A stretch of DNA of 38,931 nt from Candidatus Hodarchaeota archaeon. Its GTDB lineage: Archaea > Asgardarchaeota > Heimdallarchaeia > Hodarchaeales > Hodarchaeaceae. The notes below the pieces were generated by a model. It did no database searches. It was not told the DNA's origin and saw only the letters and a list, made by a program, of their open reading frames with translations. Location of the stretch: NCBI GenBank assembly GCA_016839785.1, contig JAEOTQ010000025.1:1-38931 (forward strand). Reading direction: 5' to 3'. A program made the translations under genes and the position numbers. Every line of letters starts with the position of its first letter. The first letter of the stretch is position 1. Of the stretch, positions 6,585 through 38,929 are shown piece after piece.

Positions 6585-6800
6585 ATGACAAAAATTTCTG
6601 TTGAAGTCCCCCAGCACATACTAGATGATCTTCAAGTCCATATTGGAACAGATAGGAAATTTGTAAGCCTTAGTGATGCTATACGGGCTGCATTACGGAA
6701 GTTATTAGATTCTCTTGATGAAATTGATAAGCGCCATGGAAGAGGAGCCGAACTTCCAGGAGACATTAAACCAGACAGTTCATTATCAAGATTGGATTAG
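6585..6800 (+). CDS. Ribbon-helix-helix (CopG/MetJ/Arc) transcriptional regulator
   Basis: KISVEVP strand, QHILDDL helix, SLSDAIRAALRKLL helix. Confidence 0.85.
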   Translation: MTKISVEVPQHILDDLQVHIGTDRKFVSLSDAIRAALRKLLDSLDEIDKRHGRGAELPGDIKPDSSLSRLD

Positions 6801-7578
6801 ATCGGAGCAGAAAATATTGGAAACATTGATAATCTCAATTGGAATATTTTTAACACTTGGAATTTTTACATATATTGCTGCAAAGTACACTGCAGTTACT
6901 AATTCGTATCATGGGTTATTAGCGGGCTACATTCTATTTCTTACACTCGCTCAGTTCTTTGCTGCTAAAATAGCGATATTTAACCTTGATTTTATTTTCC
7001 TTGGTGAGTTTCTCGCACCTGTTGGGGTCATAGTCTTCCCATTTACTTTGCAGATAACCGATATGGTGAATGAGAAATTTGGTCGGCGAGCTGTCTATCA
7101 AATGATATGGATCGCTTTAGTCAGTCAAGTTATGATGGTCATCTTTTTGATTTTTGCATCATATCTACCAGTAGCTTTTGATCCAGATCCATTTGCTGCC
7201 TTTGCAGTTGTACCAGCTATTACTCTTGCATCTTGGATAAGTTTTTTTATCAGTGAAAGATTTGATGCCTGGATTTATGATACACTAAGAGAATGGATCC
7301 GAGTAAAAACTCAAGATGATTCAAAATGGTGGAAATACCTTTGGATTCGAAACGTATTTAGTGATATACTCAGCTTAGGTCTTGATTCCCTAATTTTCGT
7401 TCCATTAGCATTTTTAATTTTTCCCCTTCTCCAAGGATTCTTTGATCCAGCAGTAGAACCTAGTGCAATAGAACTAGTTGTAGACTTAATCATTGGTCAA
7501 ATCGCAATTAAATGGTTCTTAGGAGTAATAGATACTCCCTTTATGTATCTAACAAGATGGATATACGACAGAAATTAA
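6736..7578 (+). CDS. Queuosine precursor (preQ0/preQ1) transporter, YhhQ/Vut_1 (DUF165) family
   Basis: Multi-TM protein; FAAKI, FPFTLQITDMVNEKFGRR, ASWISFFISERFD, WIRNVFSDILSLGLDSLIF, IDTPFMYL; start uncertain (6715/6736/6817). Confidence 0.9.
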   Translation: MEEEPNFQETLNQTVHYQDWIRSEQKILETLIISIGIFLTLGIFTYIAAKYTAVTNSYHGLLAGYILFLTLAQFFAAKIAIFNLDFIFLGEFLAPVGVIVFPFTLQITDMVNEKFGRRAVYQMIWIALVSQVMMVIFLIFASYLPVAFDPDPFAAFAVVPAITLASWISFFISERFDAWIYDTLREWIRVKTQDDSKWWKYLWIRNVFSDILSLGLDSLIFVPLAFLIFPLLQGFFDPAVEPSAIELVVDLIIGQIAIKWFLGVIDTPFMYLTRWIYDRN

Positions 7579-7584
7579 GGATCA

Positions 7585-9717
7585 TTAATATTGAGAGAAA
7601 ATTTCTAAAATTTCTTTAATTGGGATTTTCTCTCCTTTCAATTTTATTGAATGATGATATTTTGTGTAATACTTTAGCCCAATACCCATTTTAAGTACAA
7701 AACGGTCAATTTCAGAAAGATTCACGATAGTTTCATTAAGAATATTCAATTTCTCGGTAATTTCATCTTCAGCTTCGACTTGTACTTGATCCCATTCTTT
7801 ATGTAAACCCTCATCTAATTGTTTTCGACACACGAAGATTACATCTATTCCAATGCTATTGGTTCCCCGTATCTGAGTACTTGTTTTCATCTCTGAATGG
7901 ACTGGATAGATGCTTTTAATGATGAATTTTTGATTTATTAGGGAATTTATCAATATAAGCCAAGCATCTAATTCCTTATGATGGAACGTAAAGATAAATA
8001 ACCCATCATCTTTCAATACCCTTGAAATCTCTTCAAAAGCAGCGGAAAGGCCCTCTTGATATTGTACGTCAGATTTTCCTCTCTTTATATTTTTTACAAT
8101 TTCAGTATCTTTTGGTGAATAGTCTGGTACGAACCAGGGATAAGTGTCTTTTAGCCCTAATCTTAACCAGACATAATAAAAGTCTGCTAGTTCAGCATAT
8201 TGTACATTATCGTAATATGGAGGATCGGTAACCACGAGATCAATAGAGTTTCTAGGAAGGGGAATTTTTGAAGATGAATGGCAGTATAGATGAACCAAGT
8301 TGGAATTAGTAATGTTTTCCTGAGTATTCATTAGGTTTGAATCAAATCGCACTTCTCCAACGATGGGTTCATTCATCTGTTTTCGGGCCGGTTTGCCTGT
8401 AGAATCAATGTAGATCTCGTAGGGAGCTTTAGAATACATTTTTACTTTTATTGTTTTCTTAAAAAAATTCTTGAACGTCCCTGTACCAAATCGCGCTCCC
8501 CAGGGATTATTTTCGCATGGATTCAAGGTGGCAGGATATGCATGCTTTCTGAATAAATTATAGATATAATGGTTTTTTCGATGGTATTCACAAAGCAAAT
8601 TATTATATTCTAAAGCTGTAGAAAATGTTACAAGCAGGAATTCTCTAATATTTTGATCTACAATATCCAGAATAGCAGACAAAAGTTTACCCAAAGATAA
8701 AAGTTGACGTTTATTATACATATCAGTAAAATAGGATATCTTATGGTTTAACAATTCTTGAGTCTTTGCTCCAGGGGGTATTTGTTGATTTGGTAAGGGT
8801 AAAGAATGGCCTAATGAGTCAAACTCTAACTCTGCCTCTTTAAAAAGTTTAATATCTGTTTCGTCTGCTGTTTTAAAACCTCTCAATTCACATTGTGGAC
8901 AGTAGAATTCAATAGCATATAGTTTCTCTGAAGGTTTTCCTTGCCTTTTATTTACATTTACGATACGTTCTGTATGCTCACAAGAAGGACAAAAAAACCG
9001 TCCCCTTTTAACAAAAAAGGCTGAGGACTCAAAACTCTTAGAACACTTCGGGCATGAAGAAGAAGAATTTCTATCAGTCAGGAAAAGATGGTTACAATCA
9101 GGACAGATAACGTAGTGTGTAGAATCATCCTTCCTATTATATGCAAAAAGAAAACTACGAAATAAGGGGATAGTTTCCTGGCATTTTATACATTTAATTT
9201 CTTTGATCCAGAAATAGTACATTACTTCAGCATTGTTCGAACAATACGAACACAAGGTTTTATAGTAACGTTGGATATCCGACTTGACTTTTTTGGAGAT
9301 GTTTTCGAATTCAATTTGGAGTTCACTCAAATCTACGTCTTCGACCTCCTTTTTAACAGTAAACCATGCCACGGGATTTAAATCTCCTCCAACAACTTTT
9401 GAATAGCCTAATCTTAACGCTTCGATAATTGTTGTTCCTCCTCCCATAAATGGATCTAAAATTGACTTATTTGCGAAAGAATGCTCTTCTAAGTACAAAT
9501 CCCAGAATGTCTTTTCGCCAGATTTAACCTTGTGAGGTATCGGTTCAATACTTGCGTAAATCAGAATAGAACGAAAAACTGACCCCAATCTACGAGCAAA
9601 CCATTTGTGAAGAGTTAATATCGGACGATAGTACCTTTTGGCATTGCTTTCACGATTCGCAATTTCACTTACTTGAGAGAATGGAAAATTTCTTTCGATC
9701 TCTTTCTCAAAACTCAA
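7585..9717 (-). CDS. DUF1156/COG1743-type Zn-ribbon DNA amino-methyltransferase (paralog B)
   Basis: LHKWFARRLGSVFR, motif I DPFMGGGTT, six CxxC pairs, motif IV TDPPYYD; TTG start at 9717 overlaps the tdk TGA (TTGA); ORF-track start 9747. Confidence 0.9.
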   Translation of the reverse strand: MSFEKEIERNFPFSQVSEIANRESNAKRYYRPILTLHKWFARRLGSVFRSILIYASIEPIPHKVKSGEKTFWDLYLEEHSFANKSILDPFMGGGTTIIEALRLGYSKVVGGDLNPVAWFTVKKEVEDVDLSELQIEFENISKKVKSDIQRYYKTLCSYCSNNAEVMYYFWIKEIKCIKCQETIPLFRSFLFAYNRKDDSTHYVICPDCNHLFLTDRNSSSSCPKCSKSFESSAFFVKRGRFFCPSCEHTERIVNVNKRQGKPSEKLYAIEFYCPQCELRGFKTADETDIKLFKEAELEFDSLGHSLPLPNQQIPPGAKTQELLNHKISYFTDMYNKRQLLSLGKLLSAILDIVDQNIREFLLVTFSTALEYNNLLCEYHRKNHYIYNLFRKHAYPATLNPCENNPWGARFGTGTFKNFFKKTIKVKMYSKAPYEIYIDSTGKPARKQMNEPIVGEVRFDSNLMNTQENITNSNLVHLYCHSSSKIPLPRNSIDLVVTDPPYYDNVQYAELADFYYVWLRLGLKDTYPWFVPDYSPKDTEIVKNIKRGKSDVQYQEGLSAAFEEISRVLKDDGLFIFTFHHKELDAWLILINSLINQKFIIKSIYPVHSEMKTSTQIRGTNSIGIDVIFVCRKQLDEGLHKEWDQVQVEAEDEITEKLNILNETIVNLSEIDRFVLKMGIGLKYYTKYHHSIKLKGEKIPIKEILEIFSQY

Positions 9718-10313
9718 GTTTTGGGTACTTGGTGGTGATTTACACATCTTGGTTCATAAGTTTCTGATAGTCCTGAATTTTCTATTAAGACTAACGGACT
9801 ATTGTAAGGACTTGGTTGTCCATCTATTAGTCGTTGTGTGAGAACAGCATAATGGTTACAATTAGGGTACTCACATATCGCGGTTAGACGTGTCACACGA
9901 TGTGCTCTTCCCACTAACGAGGGCATTGGTCCAAATGGTTCACCCCTGAAACTCAATAATAAGCCACAAACAATAACATGATATTCTTTCTGGATTAACT
10001 GTTCAATTACCTCAACTAAATTGTCTGTGAAAAACTGTGCTTCATCTACTCCGACAAATTTGCATTCTAAATTTTCTAAATATGATAATATTTCTTCAGG
10101 ATGTTTTTCATCGATTATTATTGCTTCTAGCTGCATATCACTACCTCTCGAAGCAATTCCAGGCTCACGAGTATTAACTGCAGGTTTAAAAACAACCCCT
10201 TTAATATCAGAGTAACGCAGTTCGTTAAACATACGAATTAAGAATTCACTTTTTCCTGATTTCATCGGTCCGAAGATAGCTTCAAGATATCCAGGTTTAT
10301 AGATTTCTGGCAC
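9714..10313 (-). CDS. tdk: Thymidine kinase (TK1 type)
   Basis: GPMKSGKS P-loop, FKP, VDEAQFF, GLLLSFRGEPFG, Zn ligands CEYPNC...YEPRCVNH; SD GGAGGA upstream of GTG. Confidence 0.95.
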   Translation of the reverse strand: MPEIYKPGYLEAIFGPMKSGKSEFLIRMFNELRYSDIKGVVFKPAVNTREPGIASRGSDMQLEAIIIDEKHPEEILSYLENLECKFVGVDEAQFFTDNLVEVIEQLIQKEYHVIVCGLLLSFRGEPFGPMPSLVGRAHRVTRLTAICEYPNCNHYAVLTQRLIDGQPSPYNSPLVLIENSGLSETYEPRCVNHHQVPKT

Positions 10314-10375
10314 TAGAGATTTCCTCCATTAGAAATTGACTTAGCATTTTATTTTTCTTTTCAGGGAGGTTATAA

Positions 10376-12460
10376 CTATTTCTTCATTCGAAATACTTCT
10401 CCTAAAGTTGTCTTTAGAGCATTTTCTGTCCCATAAAGAAGACGAAGTGATAATGAAGGCAGAATTTTTGCTAAAAATTTCTCCCACTCTCCATCTCTCC
10501 TTGTTCCTAGGTTATTTGAATAGGCTTGGATTTCTACATTGATTTCCTCCTCTAGTGATCCAGAAATGTTTTCTGCGGGATTAATCTCATCTTCCGTCGT
10601 TTTTCTTGCTACAAGAATAATATCGGTATTACTCCCCGTGACTGGTCTTGCTTGAAATTCGCTGATAACAGGATAAGCTTCTTTAAGCAAAAATTGACTT
10701 TCTTTTAGAGCGGTAAGTATTAAAATCCACGCATTGGTATTAGAATGATGAAAAGTAAATACTAGTGGTGAATTATCTTTTAATACACGATGACATTCTG
10801 TAAAGACTTTGATTAACTGAGAGACAAATTGATTCTTGTTTTTTTGTATTCCAATTTCCTCCTTATCCATGATAGTAGGAGATTCAAACCAAGGATAAGT
10901 CAATTTCAATACAACTCTCAACCATATATAGAAAAAATTCGCTAGCTCACTATACTGAATATAATCGAAGTATGGGGGATCAGTTAGTACTAAATCGATA
11001 GATTGATCAGGAATATTGTATTTCTTCAGGTTAATAGAGGAACCTGTAATTAACAGGGCATCAGGATTTTTACTTGTGACAAGCTGTTCGAAATTGTTCA
11101 CAATATTTGCATGGATGCGATCGCCAGGTACAGAAACCCGTGAAATTTGATTTTCTTTGATTTCAATCTCAAATGGAGCATCACAATATTCTTTAGCCTT
11201 AATAATCTTATCCAAGTAAGTAATAAATGTTCCATTACCTTTGTCTGTTCCCCAGACGTTATTCTCGACGTACTGCAATGGTACTAAAAATGATTGAAAA
11301 TTGAATATGTTTACAATTTGTTTCATTGTATAGTTATATGGACAAAGAACAGTGTGGAATTCCAAGCAGCTCGAAAAGGCACTCACGAAAAATTCCTTTA
11401 AATTTTGATCACTAATTGATAAAATGCATTCTAGCAGCAAGCTTAAACTCAATAATTGTCGAGAATTGAATAGATCTGCAAAATCTTGGAAACCATAATT
11501 AATTAGATTCTTTATATTCGGCCCCCTAATTGGCAGGTGTTCTCTTGGATATGGCAAACCTTCTTTCTGTTCTTCAAATAAACCCTGAACTGTGTTATAA
11601 TTTCTGATATCCTTATCTTCTATTTGTTTGTATCCGCGGTACTTGCATGTTTTACAGTAAAATTCGATAGCAATTTGTCTAGACGAGAATGATTTTAGAT
11701 TATCTTGAAGAATATCCACTAACCGAAATTCACTTTCGCACCTAGTACAGCTGAAGATTTTTTTTCTACAATTGCCTATTTTTGGAATAAACTTTGTATC
11801 ACAACTTGGACACACACTTGTAGAAGATAAATCCTCAGAAGAATAGAATAGCATGTCACAATCTGGACATATTACCATCGTTTCTGAACTCTTCCGTTGT
11901 TTCTTCCCTATGATGTAATATTTGAATAAATCCTGTTGCGATTGACAAGAAGGACATCGAATGGTACGAACCCAGAATGTATACATAATATCTGCTTGAT
12001 CGGATCCACATTCAGTGCATTTAGTTTGATAGAATTCGATTATTTGTTTTCCAACTTTGCTAAAAAACTTGGAAATGTGATCCTGAAATTTTGCTGTATC
12101 TAAGATATCTAGCTCCTTTTTTGTTGTGAACCAAGCAACAGGATTAAGATCGATCCCGACAGTTTTTACCCCTAGTCGATTAAGCTCAATTATGGTTGTT
12201 CCTCCTCCACAAAAGGGGTCTAATACAATTCTGTCCGAAAAATTATGGTTTTTGTAAAAGGCTCCTTTATCATCATCTGTAGAGCTAAACAAAGGAGCCT
12301 CTGAAAATTGAGCTATACCTACTGCTCGAAATGTGGAACCTGGCCTTCGTGCCCAAGATTTGTGAACTGAATATATTGGTCGATAAAACTGTCGTCTTTG
12401 TGATTCAACCTTTGCTATTTTTTGGATCTTAGCAATAGGAAAATCTTTTTCTAAAGGCAT
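10376..12460 (-). CDS. DUF1156/COG1743-type Zn-ribbon DNA amino-methyltransferase (paralog A)
   Basis: VHKSWARRPGSTFR, DPFCGGGTT, six CxxC pairs, TDPPYFD; SD AGGAGA upstream of ATG. Confidence 0.9.
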   Translation of the reverse strand: MPLEKDFPIAKIQKIAKVESQRRQFYRPIYSVHKSWARRPGSTFRAVGIAQFSEAPLFSSTDDDKGAFYKNHNFSDRIVLDPFCGGGTTIIELNRLGVKTVGIDLNPVAWFTTKKELDILDTAKFQDHISKFFSKVGKQIIEFYQTKCTECGSDQADIMYTFWVRTIRCPSCQSQQDLFKYYIIGKKQRKSSETMVICPDCDMLFYSSEDLSSTSVCPSCDTKFIPKIGNCRKKIFSCTRCESEFRLVDILQDNLKSFSSRQIAIEFYCKTCKYRGYKQIEDKDIRNYNTVQGLFEEQKEGLPYPREHLPIRGPNIKNLINYGFQDFADLFNSRQLLSLSLLLECILSISDQNLKEFFVSAFSSCLEFHTVLCPYNYTMKQIVNIFNFQSFLVPLQYVENNVWGTDKGNGTFITYLDKIIKAKEYCDAPFEIEIKENQISRVSVPGDRIHANIVNNFEQLVTSKNPDALLITGSSINLKKYNIPDQSIDLVLTDPPYFDYIQYSELANFFYIWLRVVLKLTYPWFESPTIMDKEEIGIQKNKNQFVSQLIKVFTECHRVLKDNSPLVFTFHHSNTNAWILILTALKESQFLLKEAYPVISEFQARPVTGSNTDIILVARKTTEDEINPAENISGSLEEEINVEIQAYSNNLGTRRDGEWEKFLAKILPSLSLRLLYGTENALKTTLGEVFRMKK

Positions 12461-12630: not shown

Positions 12631-13503
12631 GTGAACTCTCTTATCAGATCCGTAAAAAAAGAAGATTTACCTTCTCTTGAACATTTATACATTCAATGCA
12701 TGGGAAATTTTGAATATGCATTCTATAAGAGAAATTTTTATTCTTTTATCACTTCAAATAGTGATTTAATTAGAGTATCAGAGGAACCATCAGGGAATTT
12801 ATCAGGATTTGTTATAGGGTATATAGTTAACCCTCAAAAAGCCAGAATTCAAGCATTATTCGTGTCTAGTGATTATCGTAATCGAGGGATAGGAACTAAT
12901 CTTCTTAGATCAGTAGAAAGTCATATGATTACTAAATATCCAAATCTTAGCTTTTTATCAGTACGAATTCCAGAGGAATTCTATAATTCCCAATCATTTT
13001 TCCTAAATCGTAACTTCTCATCTATAGCAAAAATCAATGGATATGTAAAAAATAACCTAGATTTCCCTTTTTCTGTCAATAGAGAAGTATCTGTTCGAAA
13101 AGCTAAGAAATCTGATTTGAAAGGAATTTTAGAGATTGAAAAAGCATGTTTTTCAAAATACTGGCAAATGAATGTTGAGAAGTTCAAGCAAATCATGAAA
13201 AATCCTTATGAGATTCTATTTGTCGCCATTAGGGACAAAAAAATTGTTGGCTACAACTTTAATGCCGTTTCTCGCAGTGATCAAAGTGGTAATTACATTA
13301 GAATAGCAACCCTTCCAAATCAACAGTATAAACGTGTCGCCACTACCCTTACAGCACAAGCCTTCAATTGGTTTAGATCAAAGTATGTGAATCGAGTGAT
13401 CCTGACTACTTTCGCTGATTCGTTCTCCCATAATGAAATGTACCGAAAATGGGGATTTAGGAAAAACGATCAAGAAATTATCATGGCTCGGAATTATGAC
13501 TGA
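12631..13503 (+). CDS. Tandem (two-domain) GNAT acetyltransferase
   Basis: YRNRGIGTNLL in domain 1; VRKAKKSDL..EIEKACF, QQYKRVATTL, MYRKWGF in domain 2. Confidence 0.85.
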   Translation: MNSLIRSVKKEDLPSLEHLYIQCMGNFEYAFYKRNFYSFITSNSDLIRVSEEPSGNLSGFVIGYIVNPQKARIQALFVSSDYRNRGIGTNLLRSVESHMITKYPNLSFLSVRIPEEFYNSQSFFLNRNFSSIAKINGYVKNNLDFPFSVNREVSVRKAKKSDLKGILEIEKACFSKYWQMNVEKFKQIMKNPYEILFVAIRDKKIVGYNFNAVSRSDQSGNYIRIATLPNQQYKRVATTLTAQAFNWFRSKYVNRVILTTFADSFSHNEMYRKWGFRKNDQEIIMARNYD

Positions 13504-22397: not shown

Positions 22398-23729
22398 CTA
22401 TTCCTTTCTGAAAATTAGACAGTACTGGTGGCATCTATTTCCTACCCAAGCATTATTTACTCCTAACGCGAGTAAACGCTTATCATCCTGTAACCAAATC
22501 TTTTCATCTTTTAGAATCCAATCAGTATCGGATATTGAAGTTGCAGTATCGTATGCTAAAGGAAAAAGTTTCCCTTCAGTAAAAACGTTGTTTGTAATCA
22601 CCACTAAGTAACCTTTGGGTTTCATAAGACCATGTATTTGTGTAAAGATGTTTTTCTGTGTCTCTAAAAAGAGGTTGTAATCTTTAATATTTGCTAGATC
22701 AAGTCGATCTAAATCACTATATTTAGTGTCGAGACCTTTATTTTTCCGTTCTTTCTGACGCATTTCAGTGCGATCTAATTGACTCCAATACGGCGGAGAG
22801 GTAATTACTAAGTCTATCTCAGAATAGCCCTGTTTCGACCAAATGTCTGTTACGTTCATACTATTGTCATGAATGATATACCAATAACCTTTTTCTTGTG
22901 TTGAATAAAGTGAACTATAGGGAAGCGCCACAAGAGGTGCGAGCCGCTATTTACTAATCTGAATATAGCGTTCAGATAGTTCAATTCCAATTGCGTTTCT
23001 ATTACATTGCTTAGCAGCGAGTACTGTACTCCCACTTCCTAAAAAGGGGTCAACAACTAGCTCTCCAGGTTTAGTAAAAAAAGTGATGAACTTTCGTATT
23101 AGTATTTCGGGAAATTTTGCAGGATGTAAAATTTCGTTTTTATTACGAGGAGGTGGTCTGACAATTATCCAAGATTTTGTCATTCGGAGCCATTCCCTGC
23201 CCGTAAGATAATTTAATTTATTTTTTTTACTTAAAATACCAAAAGGACGCTTTTTTCTCCCGTATTTTAAACTTATCATGCTTGTTATTCCCCTTTGCTG
23301 CTCTTCTGGCTTGAAAACGAGAAAACTATCTTCTTCTGTTTCATTAGCGATATTTATCAATAAATATTCAATTTCTTGATTGTAGATTGTCCCTAAGTGT
23401 GAACGGATTGTTTTTGTAGCTGATAGGAAAAGGGAGAATCTTTGAGGATCAATAGATTTTGTAAGCACAGGGATAAACACCAAGGGTGTCTCTAGATCTA
23501 GGTAATAGAAGATTAAGTCTTGTTTTTTTATCCTTATTTCGACTTGAAAACAGTTCAAATTATTTTGGGCAATAATTTCCCAAAATTTCCCAAACGCGGT
23601 ATTTTCTGGATTTTTAAGGAGGTCTTCAAGAGAAAAAACCTTTCTTAAGGAGTGGGGGCGGCAAATAAATTCAAAATAATCCCATATTTCATTCGCAGTA
23701 TCCTTTTGACCATTAGATAAAGAATTCAT
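22398..23729 (-). pseudogene. N4/N6 DNA methyltransferase (SPPY type) interrupted by one in-frame TAG at 22947-22949; pseudogene, readthrough or split gene
   Basis: The two track ORFs are in the same frame: ...HPAKFP..DPFLGSGST..GIELSERYIQISK*RLAPLVALP...ITSPPYW... Confidence 0.75.
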
Positions 23730-35342: not shown

Positions 35343-36428
35343 CTAGTTGATATCGATAATTCCATCACCAGTGATGGCAAAAACCGTTTCATTTTCAGGT
35401 AAAAGAGGTGAGTCGGCGATTCGAGCTATCCGGCGTTCACCCTTGGATTTTCGAAGGTAAACACGGGTCTGACTTGCATGGGCTACAATATGTCCCCCAA
35501 CAGGAGAAGTTGGATCCCCGAAAAACATATCTGGTTTAGAATGGACTTGATTAGTGAGGATGACGGCCATATTTCCGACTTCTGCCATTTTAAGCAAGGT
35601 ATGGATATGTTGATTCAATTTTTGTTGTCTGCTTGCTAATGTACCCCGACCGATATATTCTGCACGAAAGTGGGCAATCAAAGAGTCAACAACAACCAAC
35701 CCAATTGGTTCGGTTTGGCTGTCTTGAGCTGCTTTTTCAGCCAGGACCATCTGATGGTCACTATTGTAAGCACGACCATGCAATATATTTTTCAATACTT
35801 CTTTAACATCCAAATCACCTTCCCACCTTTTTGACATGTTTAAAATACGTTCAGGTCGAAAAGTTCCTTCGGTATCAATATAAATAACTTTAATAGGACC
35901 ATCAACTCGTAATCCTCCCAGTTCACGAGGTAACTGGGCTGCAACACATAGTTGATGCGCTAATTGAGTTTTTCCCGTACGGTATTCCCCATAAAGTTCA
36001 GTAACTGCGCCAGTCTCGATTCCACCGCCAAAAAGATCGTCTAGCGAAGCTGAACCTGTAGTAACCTTTAGCATATTTCGGCGACGTTCTAGTACTTCAT
36101 CTGCAGCGACAAAACCAAAATCAAGAGCATCTCTCGCCGCTTGAATAATCTTACTGGATGTTGCTTCTCCAAGATTCCCTACTGCGACAAGTTGACCAAT
36201 ACTTACTGTTGCAAGAGATTCTAATGTACCAAAACCTGATTCACGCAATTTTTTTGCGGTAGCAGGTCCAATACCTGGTAATTCATCTATGTTTCCAGAT
36301 GATGCTTCTTTACTTAGGGGTGCAGTAGGAGTAGTGGGTGGATTTTCTGACATTTCCACTTCCAACTCTCCTCCTTCCTCAAGAGTACTTTTACTATCAT
36401 TGTTTGATTTTTTTTTGCGAGGTGGCAT
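35343..36428 (-). CDS. radA: DNA repair and recombination protein RadA
   Basis: HhH IDELPGIGPATA, GEYRTGKTQ, YIDTEGTFRPER, VVDSLIAHFRAEYIGRGTL, TNQV, GGHIVAH. Confidence 0.97.
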   Translation of the reverse strand: MPPRKKKSNNDSKSTLEEGGELEVEMSENPPTTPTAPLSKEASSGNIDELPGIGPATAKKLRESGFGTLESLATVSIGQLVAVGNLGEATSSKIIQAARDALDFGFVAADEVLERRRNMLKVTTGSASLDDLFGGGIETGAVTELYGEYRTGKTQLAHQLCVAAQLPRELGGLRVDGPIKVIYIDTEGTFRPERILNMSKRWEGDLDVKEVLKNILHGRAYNSDHQMVLAEKAAQDSQTEPIGLVVVDSLIAHFRAEYIGRGTLASRQQKLNQHIHTLLKMAEVGNMAVILTNQVHSKPDMFFGDPTSPVGGHIVAHASQTRVYLRKSKGERRIARIADSPLLPENETVFAITGDGIIDIN

Positions 36429-37198
36429 TCTGAAATTATCCTACCAATTTAGTATGAGATGATAAGATATGATTCATGCCCTATTTTAACTAAACAGAGC
36501 ATTACGTCTAAAAGATCCTCCGTTTAATTGTAATTCAATGTGCTCTCCCGATGAAATAATGAAAAAAAAACTTGGAAATCGGATGAGAAGTAGAAAGAAC
36601 TAATTTTATGCAGATTTTTTTGCTAGAAAACTGATAATTACAAGATTTCGTCAATTTATTGAGAATTTGAAGCTTAAACAGGGATTTTAGATCATTTTTG
36701 TCATTTTCAAGTGCCTCTCTCACTATTGAAAATAAGCTGTTCTTTAAGGAAATCTTGGAAGGTAATGAAGTAATGTAAATCAATGAAAAAAAAGATTTCA
36801 TTAGGAAATAACAACTGTTCAAAGATAGTCGAGAGCTTCACTTTCGGTTAACTCCCTTTTGAGCAATCAACTTCATAAAAAGTAATGAAGATGAATCTTA
36901 TTTCAACGTATAAATTTCCCTGCCTTGTTAATAGCATAAATTTTGTGATATTTCCTTTACACTTATCGTATAACAAAAATTTCCTTAAATTTTTATCAAT
37001 CAGATAGTCTCCTAATCCTAAATACCGTATAGCTGTTAATGTAACTTTTATTAGAAAACTACTCCCATCCAGAGCTTATTATTGTTTTAAAATTGCGTCC
37101 TCAAGACTTTTTTACGATGAGATTAAATATTCACATAATACCGAATAAAAAGGTAACTTTCTGATTGAACCCGACTTAATTCTGTTCGAGATGAAAAA
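36429..37198. other. Candidate replication origin (oriC) upstream of cdc6
   Basis: 770-bp AT-rich non-coding gap; mini-ORB-like 12-mers CTCCCGATGAAA (36545-36556 +), TTCCTAATGAAA (36796-36807 -), TTCGAGATGAAA (37185-37196 +). Confidence 0.5.
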
Positions 37199-38491
37199 AT
37201 GGCGACACCGACAAAGAATTATTCATTCTCTGATCTCTTTGGTACACATAAAACAATCTTTCTTGATGAGGACGTAAACCAAGGAGAAAAGGTTTTCACC
37301 TCTTCTTATACCCCTCATTCCATCTGGCATCGAGAAGAAGAGATGAAAGCCCTTGTATCATATTTTAAGTCAATCATCGTTAGTCCAACTACTTCTAGTA
37401 AAAAGGTCATTCTCTACGGGCCAGTAGGAACAGGAAAAACAGTTATATCACATGCATTTGGAAATGAATTGGTAAATTATTTGGCTAGAGAACGAAATCA
37501 TGGTGATCCTAAGTTCAGATATTTCCATATAAATTGTAGGAAAACTAAAACCCCACATCTTATTCTCACAACGGTTCTTCGTTATCTTGTATCAGGCTTT
37601 CCGTTACGAGGGTTTTCCGTTGATGAGTTACTCCGCATGTTTACCTTATTACTTTATGAACAGAACTTAACCGTGCTTCTTGTACTTGATGAGATAGATT
37701 ACCTATTTCCTGAGGAAAGAACTGATTTTCTTTACTCTCTTTCAAGGCTAGAAGAATCACCCATACTTAGAGAAGAATTTGGAGTGAGTAATCGTTTAGA
37801 GAGTCGTTTTAATCTTCTAACGATCACTCGTGATAAAAACTTTCGATATTATTTAGACACATCAACAGCTTCATCTTTAGGGCGAAATTATATTACTTTC
37901 AACCCCTATACGCGCTACCAACTCTTTGATATTCTTGCTTCTCGAGCTGAATTAGGTTTACGCGAAGATTGTTATAATGATGAAATACTAGATACGATTG
38001 CAAACCTCGCTGAAGAAAAAGGTGATGCTAGATTCGCTATTGAACTGCTTTGGCGGAGTGCAAAAATCTGTGAAGCAGGGGGAGAAAAAAAACTGTCAGC
38101 AGAGCATGTAAGGAAAGCAGTAGTAGAAGTATTACCAATTGAAAAGTCAATCATAGACGATCTGAATACTCACCAGAAACTTGTCCTGTTAAGTATAGCA
38201 CGCCTTCTTTCTGTTTGCAGTCAATCTTATGTTACTACTCCTGAGGTTAGAAGAGAGTATGAAATGGTTTGTGAAGAAGCTAATAATATCCGACCCAGAC
38301 GACAAACACAAGTATGGGCATATTTAAAAGATCTGCATAGGCTTGGAATAATTCAACAGGAAGTAGAAAACCGTCACCTTGCTAATGGACGTTCTATAGG
38401 ACGGATTTCAACCATACGGATTCGAGACATTCCAACTGAGGAGATCATTCAGACATTGAACCATTCAATCGAGGATTCCTCACAATCCTAA
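37199..38491 (+). CDS. cdc6: Orc1/Cdc6 replication initiator
   Basis: YTPHSIWHREEE, GPVGTGKT, HINC, LVLDEID, FNPYTRYQLFDILASR, GDARFAI, C-terminal wHTH. Confidence 0.95.
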   Translation: MATPTKNYSFSDLFGTHKTIFLDEDVNQGEKVFTSSYTPHSIWHREEEMKALVSYFKSIIVSPTTSSKKVILYGPVGTGKTVISHAFGNELVNYLARERNHGDPKFRYFHINCRKTKTPHLILTTVLRYLVSGFPLRGFSVDELLRMFTLLLYEQNLTVLLVLDEIDYLFPEERTDFLYSLSRLEESPILREEFGVSNRLESRFNLLTITRDKNFRYYLDTSTASSLGRNYITFNPYTRYQLFDILASRAELGLREDCYNDEILDTIANLAEEKGDARFAIELLWRSAKICEAGGEKKLSAEHVRKAVVEVLPIEKSIIDDLNTHQKLVLLSIARLLSVCSQSYVTTPEVRREYEMVCEEANNIRPRRQTQVWAYLKDLHRLGIIQQEVENRHLANGRSIGRISTIRIRDIPTEEIIQTLNHSIEDSSQS

Positions 38492-38929
38492 TCCAATAAT
38501 AAGCCAATTTACGCCAAACCATAGCACTCCTCCAAGTAAAGCAGCAATAGGCACAGTCACTATCCATGATACAACTATCATTTTTACCATCTGCCTCTGA
38601 ATAGGTGATCTTTCTGCCCAACCAACGGCAATCATAGCTGCAATTAGAACATGAGTTCCACTTAAGGGGAATCCTAGAAATGTACCTATTGTCATTATAA
38701 GAGCAACCGAAATCATTGAAGAAAGTCCAGAAGTTGGATTCATCTCAACGAGTTCATTTGCTACGACCCGAATTACTATTTTTCCTATTACTATTAGGCC
38801 TAAAGCCATGCCAAAACCACCTAACAGCATCATTAGCCACAGATTTGTTGTTGTAGTTACACCTTCGAATACTTTCAAGCCCAAAACTGGTGCAATAGAG
38901 TTTGCTACGTCATTTCCAGCCCTTGATGC
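38480..38929 (-). CDS. PiT family inorganic phosphate transporter (5'-truncated)
   Basis: GNDVANSIAP read in the in-frame extension to the window edge; GFPLSGTH; SWIVTVP. Confidence 0.9.
   Translation of the reverse strand, partial: ASRAGNDVANSIAPVLGLKVFEGVTTTTNLWLMMLLGGFGMALGLIVIGKIVIRVVANELVEMNPTSGLSSMISVALIMTIGTFLGFPLSGTHVLIAAMIAVGWAERSPIQRQMVKMIVVSWIVTVPIAALLGGVLWFGVNWLIIGLGL

Follow-up and report, generated by a model that had tools for sequence, protein, structure and literature searches.

Dam and CcrM are solitary ('orphan') DNA methyltransferases (MTases). Other methylases belong to DUF499-centred, BREX-related (Hma) operons, and all of the MTases of the BR systems carry a C-terminal triad of helix-turn-helix-like domains, according to the accessible part of the preprint that describes them (bioRxiv 10.1101/2025.10.09.681413). 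We analyzed a 38,931-nt stretch of DNA (the window), contig JAEOTQ010000025.1 of assembly GCA_016839785.1 from a Candidatus Hodarchaeota archaeon (this genome, 84.5% complete, is called G000), in which two methylase genes of the DUF1156 type, here A and B, enclose tdk, a gene for a TK1-type thymidine kinase. In our reading, to which we give a probability of about three in four, A and B are solitary DUF1156 methylases of shortened form, and the tdk between them is a housekeeping gene that was relocated there. The order A-tdk-B came about by chance and does not represent a new system of DNA modification.

Compared with the BR methylases and HmaB, as these are presented in the accessible parts of the two reports (bioRxiv 10.1101/2025.10.09.681413; PMC11232893), the enzymes of this locus show the same chain order and 41-44% identity over 97% of B. 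They differ from the BR methylases in that A, B and a third paralogue of the same genome, C, lack about 155 C-terminal residues, and from the BR/Hma systems as a whole in that no ATPase, PglZ protein, small partner or helicase lies beside A and B, which occupy a conserved chromosomal position and not a defence island. A and B resemble orphan DNA methyltransferases in having no nearby nuclease and in their vertical inheritance, conserved position (18 other genomes of the genus) and purifying selection. Unlike Dam and CcrM, they belong to a different methylase family with a different architecture, and they occur as three paralogues, with C, beside several further conserved solitary methylases in the same genomes. 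The kinase is like other TK1-type thymidine kinases (PF00265; bacteria and some archaea), with a full-length profile match, the P-loop and the zinc ligands, and it departs from them by position only, lying as it does between two methylase genes.

Gene content of the slot between A and B

An initial annotation of this DNA had proposed that methylase, kinase and methylase form a functional module and had suggested a survey of gene neighbourhoods. In that survey the arrangement was absent from most relatives. Among 18 other genomes of the same genus, 13 have the order A-DUF47 (PhoU-like)-PitA-B, the two intervening families being assigned by Pfam on the copies of G010 and G001. In G006 the slot is empty and A and B are adjacent, while in G005 it spans 13 kb and holds a 1988-residue ATPase and a histidine kinase, partly on the opposite strand. 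Only three of the 18 (G002, G014 and G019) have tdk in the slot; G004 also has tdk between A and B, and together with G000 this makes five tdk-slot genomes, all from one subclade, among which the MTases have diverged to 65-79% identity. A B-type match was present in all 21 same-genus genomes. The flanking HhH-GPD, Vut_1 and GNAT genes are common to the loci across the genus, and Vut_1 adjoins B in 15 of the 16 same-genus loci that reach past B (it was not detected in G016). With flanks that are shared and genes between A and B that vary across the 18 genomes, A and B form a conserved pair around a slot of changeable content. An Eco57I-type methylase lies directly upstream of A, between A and the GNAT gene, in 13 of the 18 genomes, namely G005 and 12 of the 13 DUF47-PitA genomes. 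The tdk genomes lack it, and in them GNAT is the next gene after A. Two side observations concern the slot genes. The G005 slot (L037 6183..17788) encodes an AAA/STAND-like ATPase (the 1988-residue protein), a 275-residue open reading frame (ORF) that has no Pfam family and a PAS histidine kinase. The window itself holds a PitA fragment, cut by the contig end, that is 39% identical to the slot PitA of G010.

The kinase is of an ordinary kind. PF00265 is matched over residues 9-194 with 112.6 bits (cut-off 20.6), and the NCBIfam equivalog NF003296 with 170.1 bits, which is 13 bits short of its cut-off of 183. The residues G15, S19, G20, K21, D90, E91, C147, C152, C190 and H193, which make up the P-loop and the Cys/His zinc ligands, are invariant in 17 sequences. 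No second PF00265 match was found in G000. A tdk gene is present in 15 of 21 other genomes of the genus and, outside the genus, in 1 of 19 genomes of the same class. Of these 16 loci only 4 have A and B no more than 1.5 kb away (G014, G002, G004 and G019, their tdk being 88-89% identical). Elsewhere the gene usually lies in a nucleoside-salvage cluster: a deoxynucleoside kinase gene (dNK, PF01712) stands directly upstream of tdk in five of seven other genomes examined (G010, G012, G015, G001 and G017), and the neighbours differ in the remaining two, G011 and G006. The cluster of G010 also includes MFS transporters, a PGM/PMM-type mutase, a PfkB kinase and a Bmp/PnrA binding protein, and those of G001 and G017 an ORF of 252-253 residues of the phosphorylase type (PNP_UDP_1, by Pfam on the G001 copy). 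G000 retains the salvage cluster on contig C220, where a PNP_UDP_1 gene occupies the spot that dNK and tdk hold in G010; its best dNK matches lie on C206 and C208. A careful tree built from 17 tdk sequences placed the five slot copies together as a clade (99/99) within the tdk clade of the genus (100/100), and its groupings agree with those of the methylase trees. Since the slot copies nest within the tdk of the genus, this result indicated that a resident salvage tdk moved once, and that the slot does not hold a second, specialised kinase. A complex prediction for Tdk with MTase B (919 residues, two alignments) scored 0.00 against a mark of 0.32; it was run without controls and is evidence neither way.

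These results bear directly on the proposal that A, Tdk and B act in DNA modification as one module, for instance with the two methylases as a heterodimer or a strand-specific pair tied to the salvage of thymidine or of a modified nucleoside. The proposal can point to three co-directional genes, all on the minus strand by the ORF calls, to a B start that overlaps the tdk stop in all four tdk-bearing genomes aligned, to an arrangement kept in five species despite the divergence of their MTases, and to a window in which no partner genes are found. It has to contend with the confinement of the synteny to one subclade and the other contents of the slot elsewhere, with a tdk that is the single, vertically inherited copy of the genus and that otherwise sits in a salvage cluster adjoining dNK, and with an A and a B that are older than the arrival of tdk and are present in genomes where tdk does not separate them. 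On present evidence the module looks largely refuted, and we regard it as extremely unlikely; the tie between kinase and methylases that the initial annotation had suggested goes with it.

The history of the locus, read from these comparisons, is as follows. The DUF47 and PitA genes and the upstream Eco57I-type methylase were lost in the ancestor of the tdk subclade, and the single-copy tdk of the genus then moved from the nucleoside-salvage cluster into the A-B slot. There it would share a transcript with B, and might be coupled to B in translation, simply as a result of its new position, and it would continue in ordinary thymidine salvage.

The methylase family and the search for partners

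A and B are 38% identical to each other over 658 residues (E 2e-141), and both match PF01555 N6_N4_Mtase (59.4 bits for A and 53.2 bits for B, cut-off 26.7). DUF1156 (PF06634) scores below threshold in both (22.9 bits for A and 19.3 bits for B, gathering score 24); from residue 15 onward B can be aligned, at 41% identity and with the HKWxARR segment conserved, to proteins that bear PF06634, and over 97% of its length it shares 40-44% identity with bacterial and archaeal DUF1156 proteins of about 900 residues. The NCBIfam equivalog NF042963 gives 121.2 bits for A and 118.6 bits for B, far under its cut-off of 1000, and the best PADLOC match is HmaB. Against P0063, a 913-residue DUF1156 protein, B is 41% identical to residues 2-757, and because the alignment stops there, B can be seen to lack the C-terminal part of its longer relatives together with an insert of about 45 residues. 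A and C are of the same length class as B. The chain order shared by these proteins begins with an N-terminal helical segment with HKWxARR and continues through motif I, a large insert with six CxxC pairs, DPPY and FTFHH. In B, DPFxGGGT is found at residue 98 and DPPY at residue 508, with the six invariant cysteine pairs between them. All 19 A, all 17 B and all 10 C sequences retain motif I and DPPY, and the six CxxC pairs are family-wide. The initial annotation had credited both MTases with motif I for S-adenosylmethionine (SAM), DPPY and six CxxC pairs, and the translations and orthologue alignments bear this out. A, B and C each have a three-zinc-ribbon insert alongside the SAM motif and DPPY, and by sequence homology they are C-terminally shortened relatives of the methylases from DUF499-centred BREX-related (Hma) operons.

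To place the three paralogues, we used a quick maximum-likelihood tree of 80 sequences, rooted on a divergent 871-residue DUF1156 protein of G000. Each of the three paralogues, A with 19 rows, B with 17 and C with 10, was monophyletic with a support of 100 in the SH-aLRT (approximate likelihood-ratio) test. B is placed (97) with full-length DUF1156 proteins of bacteria and archaea and with short forms of another Asgard family, and not with A; short and long forms are interleaved in the tree. The trees of A, B and C show the same species groupings. Judged from these phylogenies, A, B and C are three old, separately inherited lineages, and A and B are not recent duplicates. Separately, G019 has a second A-type copy (C197, L087). 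In the tree its sister is the A of G013 (SH-aLRT 100) rather than the other A of G019, a placement that could reflect transfer or a mixed bin.

Ratios of nonsynonymous to synonymous substitution rates (dN/dS) against G014 and G019 were 0.12-0.13 for A, 0.08 for B and 0.03-0.05 for tdk; they are rough, because synonymous sites are saturated (dS > 1.2), and the comparison of B with G019 yielded no dS. Ratios of this size point to purifying selection on A and B. In a survey of 301 genomes of the phylum, with matches counted at E <= 1e-80, the family turned up in this genus (19 of 20 genomes), in family f11 (43 of 76), in family f23 (4 of 6) and in single genomes of three other families. There was no match in the 49 scored genomes of four other identifiable families of the same class (f3, f4, f5 and f6). 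The short forms of f11 lie in housekeeping contexts with no partner beside them, among ECF-transporter genes, an arrestin-like gene and an IscS-NifU-GNAT group. At a locus of another Asgard family, the protein adjoining the short methylase (L060 10188..11021, +) is arrestin-like with both Arrestin_N and Arrestin_C.

Ten loci of full-length relatives were examined for the partners that such methylases have. Their flanking ORFs were clustered, because the PF04465 (DUF499) profile misses divergent ATPases. A 130-residue gene lies immediately downstream of the methylase in nine of the ten, and a 526-residue protein with superfamily 2 (SF2) helicase motifs, found in bacterial and Methanosarcinales loci, lies downstream in six. 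Upstream, a DUF499-like ATPase is present in five and a protein of about 300 residues in seven; the profile of the latter protein matches PorX-type regulators as well as the PglZ-domain chain 9nv3_C (E 5e-7). All of these counts are lower bounds, since several contigs start or end at the methylase. PF04465 itself, run on the genomes of five full-length relatives, gave matches in two; provided that C16 is the contig with the methylase gene, one of the matches would be some 10 kb away from that gene. The layout of these operons matches the Type-3 BR layout as it is given in the accessible part of the preprint (bioRxiv 10.1101/2025.10.09.681413). Operons of this kind lie at L071 (4606..10952), L072 and L091-L099; two of the loci, L092 and L093, have two extra genes of about 610 and 650 residues inserted ahead of the methylase.

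The same partners were sought around A and B and throughout G000. No nuclease, helicase or defence-type ATPase is encoded among the 32 other ORFs scanned in the window; SNF2 and NOV_C had no match in the 84.5%-complete genome, and the PglZ protein and 130-residue partner of the full-length relatives had no tblastn match there. The view of the initial annotation that the MTases stand alone, with no restriction partner, is upheld to this extent. The genome-wide search for DUF499 and SNF2 that it had called for gave no SNF2 match and one DUF499-like gene, which lies away from A, B and C. This sole DUF499-like gene encodes 862 residues on contig C198 (L014 5814..8402, +), beside uvrC and uvrB, 48 kb from C and on another contig than A and B. 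It scored 96.3 bits in the genome search, yet hmmscan of the ORF assigned it no Pfam family.

A and B might then be the methylase arms of a dispersed BREX-related/Hma defence system whose ATPase and effector are encoded elsewhere. In favour of such a system are the homology of A and B to the methylases of DUF499-centred operons, the C198 ATPase itself, which clusters weakly (20-23% identity) with the ATPases of the full-length operons, and a helicase-like match, 27% identical, on C25 of G000. If the C198 gene were a partner of A and B, however, it would have to act from a place beside uvrC and uvrB that is far from all three methylases, and it occurs in only three of five other genomes of the genus; it was not found in G001 (94% complete) and G002 (93% complete), both of which have A and B. 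The system would also have to work with methylases that lack the C-terminal region of their full-length counterparts, from a core-chromosome locus with conserved flanks, in a genome where PglZ, the 130-residue partner, SNF2 and NOV_C were not found. We consider a dispersed system very unlikely.

Predicted structure and activity

An AlphaFold2 (AF2) model of B had a predicted local distance difference test score (pLDDT) of 89.5 and a predicted TM-score of 0.90. Its core is interrupted by the zinc-ribbon insert of about 330 residues, and the roughly 70 residues after the core form helices at 652-673, 679-697 and 710-719 and a short hairpin. A Foldseek search of the whole model against the Protein Data Bank (PDB) returned only generic Rossmann methyltransferases with query-normalised TM-scores of 0.12-0.14, and it was uninformative, probably because the insert splits the core; phmmer of B against PDB sequences gave no match at E <= 0.01. 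An independent fold search was run as well, in which the nearest solved folds for the catalytic core were Trm11, Trm14 and TrmN (3tlj, 6zxv, 3tma and 5e72). Trm11, Trm14 and TrmN belong, we take it, to the same (D/N)PPY amino-methyltransferase class, and enzymes of the Trm11/Trm14 type have a THUMP-type RNA-binding domain fused to the (D/N)PPY core. Unlike them, B aligns over only about 180 of its 720 residues, the Rossmann core, and it has the large insert and no THUMP; Pfam detected neither THUMP nor another RNA-binding domain in A or B. Such neighbours fit an exocyclic-amino methyltransferase and are compatible with DNA as well as with RNA as its substrate.

Several points weigh against solitary DNA methylases with a relocated tdk. 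The best structural neighbours of the core are transfer RNA (tRNA) N2-methylguanosine (m2G) methyltransferases: Trm14 (3tlj) with Z 17.3, Trm11 (6zxv) with Z 17.0 and TrmN (3tma) with Z 16.8, at root-mean-square deviations of 2.5-3.3 A over 174-182 residues. The activity of A and B, their substrate (DNA or RNA) and their target base are predicted from sequence and model alone. HmaB of Halomonas, a DUF1156 methylase, had no effect on T4 infection, as far as the accessible part of its description goes (PMC11232893). The missing partners must be called 'not found' and not 'absent', because of the completeness of G000. The deep order of A, B and C is provisional, because the rooting rests on one long-branch outgroup. 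Finally, the tdk-B overlap is retained in four of four tdk-bearing genomes aligned, and tight coupling can reflect functional pairing.

The first of these points opens the way to an account in which A, B and C are RNA (tRNA or rRNA) or other amino-group methyltransferases recruited from a defence-type ancestor. An m2G tRNA methyltransferase is likewise a structural neighbour of HmaB in the accessible part of PMC11232893, the genes are core-chromosomal, vertically inherited and partner-less, and we found no demonstrated DNA motif for any DUF1156 enzyme in the accessible literature. The lead of the tRNA enzymes over generic methyltransferases, which score about Z 15 in the same search, is only about 2 Z units, however, and no RNA-binding domain goes with it. 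The 41-44% full-length identity is to methylases within operons like those of restriction-modification (RM) systems, and the patchy distribution, from 19 of 20 genomes of the genus and 43 of 76 of f11 to none of 49 in f3-f6, would be unusual for a core RNA-modification enzyme. On balance an RNA substrate appears unlikely. In view of the homology to RM-like operon methylases, of the lack of a detected RNA-binding domain and of the patchy distribution, the most likely activity of A and B as predicted from sequence is DNA N6-adenine methylation. If A and B are solitary DNA methylases, then each enzyme would have a DNA motif of its own, possibly read by the zinc-ribbon insert, in which it would methylate an exocyclic amino group, with adenine N6 as the likeliest target, and each would act alone as an orphan 'epigenetic' or self-marking enzyme.

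Locus anatomy, further methylases and significance

The features of the locus are collected in Table 1.

Table 1. The A-tdk-B locus and the genes on either side of it (positions in the window).
Feature	Position	Strand	Description
MTase A	10376..12460	-	ORF of 694 residues, ATG start; shortened DUF1156-type amino-methyltransferase; motif I DPFCGGGT, six CxxC pairs, DPPYF
A-tdk spacer, 62 nt	10314..10375	-	GGAGG Shine-Dalgarno-like box ahead of the tdk start codon
tdk, TK1-type thymidine kinase	9714..10313	-	ORF of 199 residues, GTG start; PF00265 match
MTase B	7585..9747	-	720 residues (ATG 9747) or 710 residues (TTG 9717); shortened DUF1156-type amino-methyltransferase; DPFMGGGT, six CxxC pairs, DPPYY
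Vut_1 (YhhQ-type) transporter	6715..7578	+	PF02592, 121.9 bits; convergent with B; conserved synteny anchor, outside any system
GNAT acetyltransferase	12631..13503	+	Pfam assignment; divergent from A; synteny anchor

The coordinates and anatomy that had been described for the locus, with A, a 62-bp gap, tdk and a B start that overlaps the tdk TGA, were confirmed. The GGAGG box is kept in three of the four tdk-bearing genomes aligned and reads AGAGG in G019, and the tdk start codon, GTG in G000, is TTG in the other three. The start of B was less clear. A TTG in the B frame (9717..9715) does overlap the tdk stop (TGA, 9716..9714), as originally annotated, but the in-frame ATG further upstream would extend the overlap with tdk to 34 nt and leaves the choice of start ambiguous. 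The TTG is favoured by residues 1-11 of the ATG version, which have pLDDT < 50 in the AF2 model, and by orthologues outside the tdk subclade, which align only from residue 12-17. It is disfavoured by its own conservation, being kept in three of the four aligned genomes and replaced by CTA in G019; the ATG is kept in all four, but it sits within the conserved RCVNHH codons of tdk. The start codon of B is therefore ambiguous, ATG or TTG, and the end of tdk is overlapped under either. A scan for sigma-70 promoters and terminators gave 23 sites against 21.9 expected and was uninformative, the model being ill-suited to an archaeon.

The window is ordinary chromosome, with a base composition that is flat along its length and housekeeping genes among the 32 other ORFs scanned. 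These include a geranylgeranyl-reductase-like flavoprotein, a tRNA-editing domain protein, several GNATs, the HhH-GPD glycosylase, the Vut_1 transporter, a histidine phosphatase, an acyl-CoA synthetase-like protein, a subtilase, an ABC/FtsX pair and a glycerol-kinase-like FGGY protein, as well as RadA and Orc1/Cdc6 (35343..38491 and 38480..38929), which are some 25 kb away from the methylase pair. The flat composition and the housekeeping neighbours led us to reject the idea of a provirus or mobile island. The window contains a third methylase gene (22398..23729, -), with motif I followed by SPPY, whose frame has a single in-frame TAG at 22949..22947. Its relatives have uninterrupted frames of 443-535 residues, and the broken gene may be a pseudogene, a sequencing error or a case of recoding.

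Paralogue C lies on contig C198 of G000 (at 8046..10190, -, of L011, which covers 46000-64000) in a second conserved methylase island. The order there is a beta-CASP gene, a 272-residue N6_N4 MTase, a divergent HAD hydrolase, MTase C, a 260-residue N6_N4 MTase and a convergent 580-residue Eco57I-type MTase. The HAD-MTase C-260-residue MTase group, with the 272-residue and Eco57I-type MTases, recurs in nine of nine other genomes of the genus that were fetched, and beta-CASP is present in seven of the nine. A 966-residue Dna2-like helicase-nuclease with a RING finger was seen at the island in three genomes (G016, G011 and G019), the other loci ending before that point. The 871-residue protein on which the tree was rooted is a full-DUF1156 methylase (74.7 bits) encoded on C4 (L012 8571..11186, -) and 26% identical to B; it likewise has no partner genes, and its neighbours are TldD/PmbA, thioredoxin and MCP.

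Other conserved partner-less methylases in these genomes comprise two of the Eco57I type, two small ones of the N6/N4 type and one of the SPPY type. One could imagine that A, B, C and these enzymes make up a lineage-wide epigenetic toolkit of the Hodarchaeales, built from disarmed defence methylases, in which, within the tdk subclade, the coupling of tdk translation to B has been kept as a tie between the supply of thymidylate (dTMP) for replication and the methylation of new DNA. We mention this as a long shot, with very little probability attached to it.

The kinase-linked modification system that had been proposed is not there. What the locus offers in its place is a DUF1156 defence-type family that has been stripped of its C-terminal domains and partners and fixed as three separately conserved chromosomal genes in a genus of the Hodarchaeales. 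We found no description of such shortened, solitary DUF1156 forms in the accessible literature; the supplementary tables of the BR report, with their taxa and neighbourhoods, may already include them. The Hodarchaeales are possibly the closest Asgard lineage to eukaryotes, according to the accessible part of PMC13700489, and a report that presents itself, in the part accessible, as the first Asgard methylome deals with other Asgard lineages (10.1101/2024.03.22.586370). Asgard methylomes are barely known, and given long-read data from Hodarchaeales, A, B and C would be clear candidates for the assignment of motifs.

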